A stretch of 64,000 nt of DNA from a virus. The position numbers were made by a program, and so were the translations under genes. Below, piece after piece: positions 28,158-49,043 of this stretch (position 1 is its first letter; each line of letters starts with the position of its first letter). The stretch lies in IMG/VR virus record IMGVR_UViG_3300032093_000013; one strand, written 5' to 3'. Below the pieces are notes generated by a model. It saw only the letters and a program-made list of their open reading frames with translations, did not search any database and was not told the origin of the DNA.

Positions 28158-28619
28158 TTATTTTTTATTCTTACCCCTGTAGGTGTCTGTTTGAGCGTGA
28201 CAGTTGGGGCACAGGATGCGAAGGTTTTCTAAACGATTATCGTGATGGTTGCCGTTTATGTGGTCAAGTTCAATAGGTGCTGGTTTTCCATTCCACTCCG
28301 TTATACCACAGCACTCGCACTTATGTTGTTTGAGACCTTCTGCTATTAATCGTTTTTTAAATTTATGCGATTGGTGATATGAATTTTCAGTCAAATAATA
28401 TTCAATAGGTTTTTTAGTGTAATCGTGTGTTTTTCCTCTTAAGTGTGCTTGCCCAGTAAAATGAGAATCATCAAGATTTAGAGTTTTTATTCTTTTTTGA
28501 GCAACTTCATAGTTTCCACCTGCTTGTTTTAAATTAAGTTTGGATAAAACTTGTCTAATACTCGTGGAAGTTTTGACTGCCTCTATAAATTGCTCATCAG
28601 TATATTTACGATTAGACAT
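28158..28619 (-). CDS. HNH endonuclease
   Basis: CECCG...ELDHINGNHHDNRLENLRILCPNCHAQT. Confidence 0.9.
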   Translation of the reverse strand: MSNRKYTDEQFIEAVKTSTSIRQVLSKLNLKQAGGNYEVAQKRIKTLNLDDSHFTGQAHLRGKTHDYTKKPIEYYLTENSYHQSHKFKKRLIAEGLKQHKCECCGITEWNGKPAPIELDHINGNHHDNRLENLRILCPNCHAQTDTYRGKNKK

Positions 28620-28667
28620 AACTTAAACGGAAAACTCATTATTATTTATATTGCTATGTCTTTTAAG

Positions 28668-28742
28668 TAGCGGTGGCGAGATTCGAACTCGCACTGTATT
28701 GATTTTAAGTCAACTGCCTGCTGCCGATTGGGCTACACCGCC
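28668..28742 (-). tRNA. tRNA-Leu(UAA) with short variable loop
   Basis: cloverleaf; anticodon loop CTTAAAA; TTCGAAT; no encoded CCA. Confidence 0.85.
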
Positions 28743-28751
28743 AATAAGACC

Positions 28752-28780
28752 ATTATAACTCAAAGAGTTGTAGTGGTCAA
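28752..28780 (-). promoter_or_regulatory. sigma70-type promoter for tRNA-Leu
   Basis: TTGACC-N17-TATAAT. Confidence 0.65.
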
Positions 28781-28781
28781 G

Positions 28782-28855
28782 TGCTCGTTGAGAGAATCGA
28801 ACTCTTCCTACGGCGCTTTATGAGAACGCTGCCTTCACCAGATGGCTAAACGAGC
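28782..28855 (-). tRNA. tRNA(CAU): elongator Met or Ile2
   Basis: cloverleaf; loop CTCATAA; paired G1-C72, so not an initiator. Confidence 0.85.
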
Positions 28856-28884: not shown

Positions 28885-28972
28885 TACGAGTGCCTGGATT
28901 CGAACCAGGTCAAAGCCGCTAATCTGGCGGAAAGAGTTTATAAGACTCCTCTGACTACCAAGTCTCACTCGC
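28885..28972 (-). tRNA. non-canonical tRNA(UAU), nominally Ile
   Basis: acceptor GCGAGTG/CACTCGT, loop CTTATAA, T arm CCTGG-TTCGAAT-CCAGG, long variable arm. Confidence 0.75.
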
Positions 28973-28980
28973 TTCTGCGT

Positions 28981-29154
28981 TTATGATGCCTCGTTATTAT
29001 ACTCAGTGTGTATTCGTATGAGGTCATCATCGGCAGGTATCATAACTGCTGCTCTACCATTCTCGTCTACTATACCTAAACTCTCTCCGTTTTCCACTCT
29101 TTCAATTAGTTCGTCAAAACGTTCTTGAAACTCTGCCACTGTGAAAACTTCCAT
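28981..29154 (-). CDS. Phd/YefM-like antitoxin-family protein (57 aa)
   Basis: hand-translated MEVFTVAEFQERFDELIERVENGESLGIVDENGRAAVMIP. Confidence 0.65.
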   Translation of the reverse strand: MEVFTVAEFQERFDELIERVENGESLGIVDENGRAAVMIPADDDLIRIHTEYNNEAS

Positions 29155-29183
29155 TCGGTTTTTTCGATATTTATACTATAGCA

Positions 29184-29384
29184 TCACTGCCCATAAATGG
29201 CAAGATCAGCATACTCAATCTGCTCAGGGTCAAGTTGAGCGGTGACAACTTCCAACACATTCATAAACTCTTCTACAGTATCACACTCAACCAAACGCTC
29301 GCTGCCCTGGTCGCTGAGGAGAAGGAAGGTGCGGGTGCATACATCAATCACAATGCCCTGGACGGTTTCTTGTGCAGTGCTCAT
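29184..29384 (-). CDS. conserved cyanophage hypothetical protein
   Basis: 66-aa ORF after a consensus promoter. Confidence 0.7.
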   Translation of the reverse strand: MSTAQETVQGIVIDVCTRTFLLLSDQGSERLVECDTVEEFMNVLEVVTAQLDPEQIEYADLAIYGQ

Positions 29385-29410: not shown

Positions 29411-29439
29411 ATTATAGGGCAGCTGGGGGCGGGTGTCAA
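29411..29439 (-). promoter_or_regulatory. sigma70-type promoter
   Basis: TTGACA-N17-TATAAT. Confidence 0.8.
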
Positions 29440-48801: not shown

Positions 48802-49036
48802 GCGTTCCTTCAGTCGGCTTTTGCGTCTATTTTGCACTCTTTTGGAGTAATCTGTTTGATTTCCCAAACCAAGTCATTTTTTGCTTGTTTTGGAATATCA
48901 ACTTTATGAATTCTCCCAACCATTAACTGTGCTTGAAGGCAAGTTAAAAGAAGTGTTTCCATAGATGAACGACCTATAAGTAGGTTTTAATCCGTTCCGA
49001 GTCGGCTTACTTCCGTCTGGTTTCCCAGATGAACGA
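48802..49036 (-). ncRNA. tandem glutamine riboswitch (glnA motif-like)
   Basis: aptamer 1 CGTTC-A-TCTGG-GAAA-CCAGA-CGGAAGTAAG..GAACG; aptamer 2 CGTTC-A-TCTAT..ATAGA..CTGAAGGAACGC. Confidence 0.75.
48810..48962 (-). CDS. 50-aa ORF nested in riboswitch aptamer 2
   Basis: METLLLTCLQAQLMVGRIHKVDIPKQAKNDLVWEIKQITPKECKIDAKAD. Confidence 0.65.
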   Translation of the reverse strand: METLLLTCLQAQLMVGRIHKVDIPKQAKNDLVWEIKQITPKECKIDAKAD

Positions 49037-49043
49037 TGAGAGT

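Follow-up and report, generated by a model that had tools for sequence, protein, structure and literature searches.

A Long-Armed tRNA(UAU) of a T4-like Cyanophage with the Isoleucine Anticodon GAU at the Tip of Its Extra Hairpin

The tRNA(UAU) Gene and Its Surroundings

The window, i.e., the whole stretch of 64,000 nt of viral DNA analysed here (IMG/VR record IMGVR_UViG_3300032093_000013), derives from a cyanophage of the T4-like type. Its relative S-SRM01, a Synechococcus phage, shares 82% identity with it over half of a 24-kb stretch, and its G+C content is about 37%. ARAGORN detected a cluster of three tRNA genes on the minus strand, with the anticodons UAU, CAU and UAA (Leu). A non-canonical tRNA(UAU) had been proposed in a preliminary description of this DNA. 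ARAGORN called it as a tRNA at precisely the same position, 28885-28972 (-), with the anticodon TAT at tRNA position 31, and the minimum-free-energy fold of the 88 nt (-31.1 kcal/mol, z -2.6) was the fold that had been described before. All features of the locus are listed in Table 1.

Table 1. Features of the tRNA(UAU) locus and positions in related contigs
Feature	Position	Strand	Basis
Non-canonical tRNA(UAU), 88 nt, CCA not encoded	28885..28972	-	ARAGORN, fold, covariance-model score 113.4 bits, covariation
Anticodon UAU within the 7-nt loop CUUAUAA (28938-28944)	28940..28942	-	ARAGORN
1-nt connector (A8) and compact D arm GACU-UGGU-AGUC	28953..28965	-	Compensatory changes in 4/4 D-stem pairs
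Anticodon arm, 4 inner covarying pairs and 3 outer R:U pairs giving 7 bp	28931..28951	-	Covariation
Extra (variable-arm) hairpin CCGC-CAGAUUA-GCGG, GAU at 28922-28924	28916..28930	-	Stem covaries 4/4, GAU unchanged
6-nt linker CUUUGA from extra hairpin to T stem	28910..28915	-	Kept as CUUUGA, CUUGA or CUCGA in the compact type
T arm CCUGG-UUCGAAU-CCAGG	28893..28909	-	4/5 pairs with compensatory changes; G53:C61 invariant
tRNA(CAU), elongator Met or Ile2 type, just downstream of tRNA(UAU)	28781..28855	-	ARAGORN, Rfam
tRNA-Leu(UAA)	28667..28742	-	ARAGORN, Rfam
HNH-endonuclease gene after tRNA-Leu	28158-28619	-	Weak Pfam matches
57-aa Phd/YefM-like ORF, ends 8 nt upstream of tRNA(UAU)	28981..29154	-	PF02604, 28.7 bits, just under the cut-off of 29.8
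DUF7294 ORF, upstream of Phd/YefM-like ORF	29184-29384	-	
Perfect TTGACA-17-TATAAT sigma-70-type promoter, upstream of both small ORFs and the tRNAs	29411..29439	-	Consensus match only
Weaker sigma-70-type sites	29175-29203 and 28752-28780	-	Consensus match only
S-CRM01 90-nt tRNA and 3' half copy	NC_015569.1 145590-145746		
Contigs with both builds of tRNA(UAU)	L013:5551-5623, L026:4834-4907, L028:941-1015, L047:859-933, L093:1557-1631, L109:91-165, L196		

The acceptor stem of the tRNA(UAU) has 7 bp, including G1:U72, and is followed by the discriminator A73; A21 stands after the D stem. The anticodon stem GAGGAGU/ACUCUUU encloses the loop CUUAUAA, and the variable region comprises 21 nt (a 15-nt hairpin plus a 6-nt linker). 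Several features required in translation are kept, namely a 12-bp acceptor/T branch (7/5), the T loop UUCGAAU and a 7-nt anticodon loop with U33 and A37. The general tRNA model of Rfam (RF00005) missed the gene at its gathering score. With a loose threshold, and with only the best match of the clan being reported, the top family was tRNA-Sec, at 29.7 bits compared to a cut-off of 47.

The Phd/YefM-like ORF has a counterpart in phage S-SKS1 that is annotated as 'Phd-like antitoxin'; no toxin gene was adjacent to this ORF in the window. A promoter scan revealed 7 sites versus 2.6 expected, and the Phd/YefM-like and DUF7294 ORFs are apparently co-transcribed with the tRNAs. The tRNA(CAU) was the downstream neighbour of 105 of 266 long-armed UAU tRNAs and also of most close relatives of the window tRNA. 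At a distance from the cluster, at 48989-49037 (-), the window harbors a glutamine riboswitch aptamer (RF01739, 39.2 bits, cut-off 35), a riboswitch class of cyanobacteria and their phages.

Three cultured cyanophages carry the tRNA without annotation. In S-SRM01 it is identical in sequence, and an HNH endonuclease gene is inserted between tRNA(UAU) and tRNA-Met (L001:2636-3055). The tRNA of S-SKS1 is 82% identical and has C4:G69. S-CRM01 encodes a divergent tRNA(UAU) of 90 nt (L122:1404-1493), in which the connector measures 1 nt and the D loop 7 nt, and the side loop reads CCGAUUA. Directly after this 90-nt tRNA, at about L122:1494-1560, we found the 3' half of a compact-type tRNA. It begins with the 3' strand of the anticodon stem and runs through the acceptor end, and the 5' half is lacking. 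An HNH-endonuclease gene also lies beside or inside the tRNA cluster of S-CRM01 (L122:865-1413). Homing endonucleases may explain the presence of near-identical tRNA copies in distantly related cyanophages. This tRNA architecture is missed by standard annotation, as seen in the three phages and from its score below the Rfam tRNA threshold, and cyanophage tRNA counts and codon-adaptation analyses omit the tRNA(UAU) gene.

Conservation of the Compact Fold

Relatives were collected with a pattern on the D and anticodon arms only, from which the extra arm was left out, and this pattern matched at least 118 viral contigs. The exact 88-nt sequence of the window recurred in 62 fetched viral loci. Looser patterns brought in remoter forms of tRNA(UAU). 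ARAGORN missed many true members when applied to short excised segments, so we used whole loci together with our own structural parse. A covariance model was built from the fold of the preliminary description, and 64 distinct sequences of the compact type were aligned, which scored between 58 and 116 bits.

Standard pairs were present in 99.4% of the alignment cells of these 64 sequences, compared to 74.8% after shuffling and to 41-48% when the partners were slid. Changes on both sides were seen in 23 of the 27 pairs, and none of 500 shuffles reached the observed values. Compensatory changes occurred in all pairs of the acceptor stem, the D stem and the extra hairpin, and in 11 of the 12 pairs of the acceptor and T stems, which were 100% paired. 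In the anticodon stem, the pairs 25:39 to 28:36 changed on both sides. The outer pairs 22:42 to 24:40 varied on one side only (G:U/G:C, A:U/G:U and G:U/A:U). The anticodon stem had been described as extendable to 7 bp: this is compatible with the pairing data and the four inner pairs covary, but the outer three are unproven by compensatory change.

The 1-nt connector, the 4-nt NGGN D loop (with the D-loop GG) and A73 were found in all 64 relatives, and G1:U72 in 56 of them. A37 and A38 were also present in 64 of 64, in a loop that was partly fixed by the search patterns. No compact body with a nucleotide other than U at position 34 was found in the viral contigs. These results show that the tRNA(UAU) gene is real and that its fold is kept by selection. 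The computed fold also agreed on the G1:U72 acceptor, the 1-nt connector, the 4-bp D stem with its 4-nt loop, the long variable hairpin with the 6-nt linker and the normal T arm, all of which had been noticed before.

An alternative 6-bp pairing of UCAGAG (end of the D stem to start of the anticodon stem) with the linker CUUUGA was rejected: the GUGU/ACAC subtype, with the linker CUCGA, cannot form it, and the D stem covaries. Readings of the tRNA(UAU) locus as an intron, as an attachment site or as two tRNAs that overlap had no support. Several close relatives (L035, L071, L084, L099 and L110) have the T loop AUCGUAA for UUCGAAU (A54 for U54), with the remaining tRNA kept.

We also compared the tRNA with known irregular tRNAs. 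A likeness to tRNA-Pyl had been suggested, and it holds only for the compact core: in tRNA-Pyl and mammalian mitochondrial tRNA-Ser(UCN), too, the connector is 1 nt, the D loop is very small and the anticodon stem exceeds 5 bp (PMC7609411 and textbook knowledge). However, every defining feature of tRNA-Pyl itself is absent. tRNA-Pyl has the anticodon CUA, a variable loop of 3 nt, a 6-bp anticodon stem and no usual GG/T-psi-C contact, whereas in the window tRNA the anticodon is UAU, the extra arm is long, the T loop is canonical and the D-loop GG is present. With tRNA-Sec (RF01852) it has the 4-nt D loop, the long extra arm and the longer anticodon stem in common, but, apart from the low score, its branch has 12 bp instead of 13, its D stem 4 bp instead of 6, its anticodon is UAU instead of UCA and its discriminator A73 instead of G73. 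Class II tRNAs (Leu, Ser, Tyr) have the long arm, but the anticodon here is UAU.

The allo-tRNA(UAU) species (Mukai et al. 2017, PMC5389517; PMC7609411) are likewise irregular and long-armed with the anticodon UAU, and were found in metagenomes, phages and Acidobacteria, some of them beside toxin-antitoxin genes. By definition, the acceptor/T branch of an allo-tRNA is 8/4 or 9/3, and most members have Ser identity (G73 plus long arm) (PMC5389517). The 7/5 branch with full covariation and the A73 in 64 of 64 relatives set the window tRNA apart from the allo-tRNAs. An 8/4 register would also require a pair between A8 and the base next to the T stem on its 3' side, which is unable to form in any variant. 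The closest remark in the searched literature concerned allo-tRNA(UAU) species, which are described as abundant and of odd structure and may have no part in translation. Full-text literature searches revealed no paper on a tRNA-Ile(UAU) that combines a long arm with a side loop showing GAU, and the design with UAU and GAU hairpin appears to be absent from the searched literature.

The GAU-Tipped Hairpin Is Tied to the UAU Anticodon

The loop of the extra hairpin, CAGAUUA, displays GAU, the ordinary (major) isoleucine anticodon. The preliminary description had listed this loop correctly but had overlooked the GAU, its most constrained feature. Among the close relatives listed as matches with the arm left unconstrained, the loop was always C[A/C]GAU[U/C]A, while the stem occurred in four covarying forms. 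A sample with unconstrained arm was obtained by a pattern that consisted only of CUUAUAA, 23-37 nt and GGUUCGAAUCC. It yielded 61 distinct long-armed tRNA(UAU) genes, and about 57 of the 61 had GAU at the hairpin tip. As a control, we inspected the long tRNAs of these loci that have other anticodons (Ser, Leu, Tyr and a few more). Of 258 distinct ones, only 4 showed GAU in the loop of the arm.

In the reverse test, IMG/VR was searched for the CAGAUUA loop together with the same T loop and an anticodon deviating from UAU at position 34, 35 or 36, and no true case was found. The same test for position 34 in 241 million metagenome records gave 12 matches without a true case (4 UAU tRNAs, 2 tRNA-Ser whose stem includes part of the motif, and 6 non-tRNAs). 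The UAU version with the CAGAUUA loop was present in at least 148 fetched viral loci. Because of the strong difference between about 57 of 61 and 4 of 258, and because of the empty reverse tests, we concluded that a UAU anticodon and a side loop with GAU are coupled. This strict coupling makes the uncoupling of synthetase identity and codon reading, which is an old question, experimentally simple to address.

With its compact core, the window tRNA represents one form of a much larger class of tRNA(UAU) from phages and mobile arrays. The class is characterized by UAU and a 4-5-bp extra hairpin on single-stranded tethers with GAU at the tip of a loop of about 7 nt, and the window tRNA has both. 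Other members have an ordinary D arm (U8-N9 and a D loop of 7-8 nt) and a 5-bp anticodon stem, so the GAU hairpin is common to the canonical-D and the compact-D forms. From the Ile anticodon loop, only GAU and the outermost C and A recur in the extra loop. The equivalent of U33 is A (or C, G, U), and that of A37 (t6A37) is U. A conserved complement in the anticodon loop or the T loop that would allow loop-loop pairing with the GAU loop was not found.

One genome from each of 185,579 prokaryote species was searched for UAU in combination with CAGAUUA and the same T loop, and 18 genomes matched. These were mostly metagenome-assembled genomes (MAGs) of Acidobacteriota (Pyrinomonadaceae, Blastocatellia), a group in which allo-tRNA(UAU) species also occur; none was cyanobacterial. 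Nearly all of the 18 matches lie within dense tRNA arrays with up to 27 genes in 8 kb. Most such arrays also hold tRNA-Ile(GAU), often adjoining, and the long-armed tRNA fills the AUA slot of near-complete sets. This distribution is that of a mobile or viral tRNA rather than of a core cellular tRNA. In the Acidobacteriota MAG contigs L307-L324 (e.g., L314:1-8000 and L309:1-8000), 13-27 tRNA genes including the long-armed tRNA(UAU) are packed into 8 kb or less, and the arrays may be prophages or mobile tRNA islands. A BLAST search of cultured phages with canonical-type relatives, which is too insensitive to map hosts, gave a few matches to Lactobacillus phages, one of them annotated as tRNA-Ile.

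A few viral contigs contain an ordinary tRNA(UAU) of 73-75 nt beside the long-armed form, and the two UAU builds coexist there (Table 1). Since some contigs also hold the ordinary tRNA(UAU), the long-armed form is not always the sole reader of AUA. Metatranscriptome runs of several studies contained short parts of the window stretch. Four RNA-library runs contained tRNA copies of relatives in contigs that run into the flanks of other phages and have no CCA tail; such contigs cannot show ends, and DNA carry-over is possible.

Decoding, Charging and Possible Role of the Hairpin

The codon AUA accounts for 177 of the 16,012 codons in the ORFs of the window, which is 11 per 1000 and 16% of the Ile codons. 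We aligned the window ORFs to all fetched loci by tblastn (25-85% identity; counts were not corrected for relatedness). Opposite the AUA codons of the window, Ile was found in 38.9% (24.7% plus 14.2% that were again AUA), Val in 14.4%, Leu in 12.7%, Thr in 8.1%, Met in 2.9% and Ser in 2.2%. The rank order of residues was the same as opposite AUU and AUC (Ile > Val > Leu). This identical order shows that AUA keeps its ordinary meaning and rules out its wholesale reassignment to Ser, Leu or Met. As judged from these alignments, AUA is not recoded in the window phage. The earlier suggestion of a tRNA charged with another amino acid finds no support here, as far as the main meaning of AUA is concerned.

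We consider it likely that the gene encodes a working, TilS-independent elongator tRNA-Ile that reads AUA in this AT-rich cyanophage. Of the three options that had been raised for its function, the evidence most favours an AUA decoder that does not depend on TilS: the anticodon UAU is invariant in CUUAUAA, A73, an intact T loop and the D-loop GG are present, the genes lie in clusters or arrays, AUA is used at 11 per 1000, and AUA sites align with Ile, Val and Leu. The tRNA would read AUA as isoleucine without lysidine, and it would provide a decoder to a phage that uses AUA far more than expected of G+C-rich Synechococcus-type hosts. The body is compacted by the 1-nt connector and by a 4-nt D loop that keeps GG for the contact to the T loop, together with the lengthened anticodon stem. 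If this reading is true, the tRNA represents a widespread and so far undescribed phage route to AUA without the lysidine pathway of the host. An unmodified U34 would read AUG too. This problem of AUA/AUG discrimination by a U34 tRNA is real (PMC3575796). It is only an idea that the neighbouring tRNA(CAU), if Met, is an extra tRNA-Met that competes against AUG misreading by U34.

Isoleucine identity in bacteria involves A73, A37 (the t6A site after U36), A38 and G34 or lysidine-34, and the anticodon and A73 (and t6A37) are strong determinants (PMC9976931). A73, A37 and A38 are present in the tRNA(UAU). G34 or lysidine-34 is missing from its anticodon, and GAU is found only in the extra loop. 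The loop context CU-UAU-AA and A73 agree with the identity set of bacterial tRNA-Ile, from which we infer that the tRNA is charged with Ile. In E. coli, the minor determinants are C4:G69, U12:A23 (printed as 'U12-G23' in the review) and C29:G41, and G16, D20 and D21 of the D loop matter for charging and editing by IleRS (PMC9976931). These minor elements are lacking: the window tRNA has A4:U69, and the compact D loop is without G16, D20 and D21, which counts against the proposed tRNA-Ile.

A tRNA-Ile with UAU is not without precedent. Mycoplasma mobile tRNA-Ile2 (PMC3575796) and the tRNA of lactobacilli (cited in PMC9976931) likewise have UAU in a CUUAUAA-type loop and A73, and presumably read AUA without lysidine. 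E. coli IleRS charges tRNA-Ile(UAU) inefficiently unless W905 is replaced by Arg, as in the IleRS of M. mobile, and the tRNA of the M. mobile type has an ordinary class I body and its own, adapted IleRS (Arg865 in M. mobile) (PMC3575796). In contrast, the cyanophage tRNA has the long hairpin with GAU, the 1-nt connector, the 4-nt D loop and mostly G1:U72, and it meets a host IleRS that it cannot change.

Since a typical bacterial IleRS accepts UAU poorly and the phage cannot adapt that of its host, a GAU in the side hairpin is an attractive means to restore recognition. We tentatively suggest, as a possibility that we hold with reservation, that the GAU hairpin is a surrogate identity element for an unadapted host IleRS. 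The flexibly tethered GAU would act as a 'second anticodon' that is read by the synthetase and not by the ribosome, and the IleRS of any host would still charge Ile. Identity and decoding would be placed on two separate loops of one tRNA, and such a portable arrangement would suit mobile elements. The strict coupling of UAU and GAU fits this idea. The side loop without equivalents of U33 and A37 argues against it, t6A37 being a strong determinant, and so does the ordinary short tRNA(UAU) that is also carried by a few contigs. Moreover, class I synthetases bind their tRNAs with the variable region facing the solvent. For this reason, a contact between IleRS and hairpin would need the flexible tether or another docking mode. 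The C-terminal domain of Pyrococcus horikoshii LeuRS reportedly reads bases at the tip of the variable arm of tRNA-Leu. Archaeal LeuRS is a class Ia enzyme related to IleRS, which makes the proposed contact conceivable, although enzyme, amino acid and domain of life are different. We know of no IleRS with a contact to the tip of a variable arm. If the surrogate role were true, the tRNA would provide a natural template for engineered tRNAs with an identity element outside the anticodon.

The tRNA could also read AUA as isoleucine with the hairpin serving a purpose other than recognition by IleRS, e.g., as a tertiary brace of the shrunken core, as a site for a phage or host protein or modification enzyme (for example acting on U34 and preventing AUG misreading), or as an antideterminant. 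The departure of the loop from a true Ile anticodon loop at the equivalents of U33 and A37, the usual orientation of class I synthetases away from the variable region and the discrimination problem of U34 (PMC3575796) would all be in line with such a role. We regard it as only somewhat less probable than the surrogate role. Against it, the triplet under constraint is precisely that of the major Ile anticodon and is found only with UAU, and the presence of the hairpin in both canonical-D and compact-D forms argues against a brace that is a specific fix for the compact core.

That the RNA is tRNA-like without acting in translation appears improbable. It would then be a decoy or sponge for a host defence that targets tRNAs, as had been considered before, or a regulator linked to the Phd-like antitoxin gene. 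The Phd/YefM-like ORF ends only 8 nt upstream, the RNA would resemble the inactive allo-tRNA(UAU) species beside toxin-antitoxin genes, and some contigs possess an ordinary tRNA(UAU) as well. A hairpin with the anticodon of the major tRNA-Ile of the host could in principle bait an enzyme that targets this tRNA, but to our knowledge no nuclease against tRNA-Ile(GAU) is known. Against such a role, the association with Phd is limited to close cyanophage relatives and absent from the wider class. Furthermore, all features needed on EF-Tu and the ribosome (D-loop GG, T loop, U33/A37 and the 12-bp branch) are under purifying selection, the anticodon is invariant, and the genes reside in ordinary tRNA clusters and arrays, where they take the AUA slot.

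Even less probable is a mistranslating or recoding tRNA, for which the long arm and A73 would create a substrate for LeuRS (or SerRS, TyrRS), so that AUA would partly be read otherwise. In bacteria, it is otherwise only the tRNAs for Leu, Ser, Tyr and Sec that have long variable arms, and E. coli LeuRS ignores the anticodon and has A73 as its main determinant. However, the compact core is without the D-loop and tertiary elements that E. coli LeuRS uses. SerRS needs G73 and a long rigid arm, and neither the A73 of all 64 relatives nor a hairpin of 4-5 bp on flexible linkers fits this; U34 and A35 do not fit TyrRS. The residues opposite AUA are distributed as for Ile (Ile 39%, Val 14%, Leu 13%, Ser 2%), and low-level mischarging may still be compatible with these codon statistics. 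As a further form of the extra arm, a tRNA(UAU) variant in L306:3800-3935 (-) and in L340 carries two hairpins in the variable region, one capped by GAAA and then one with the CAGAUUA loop.
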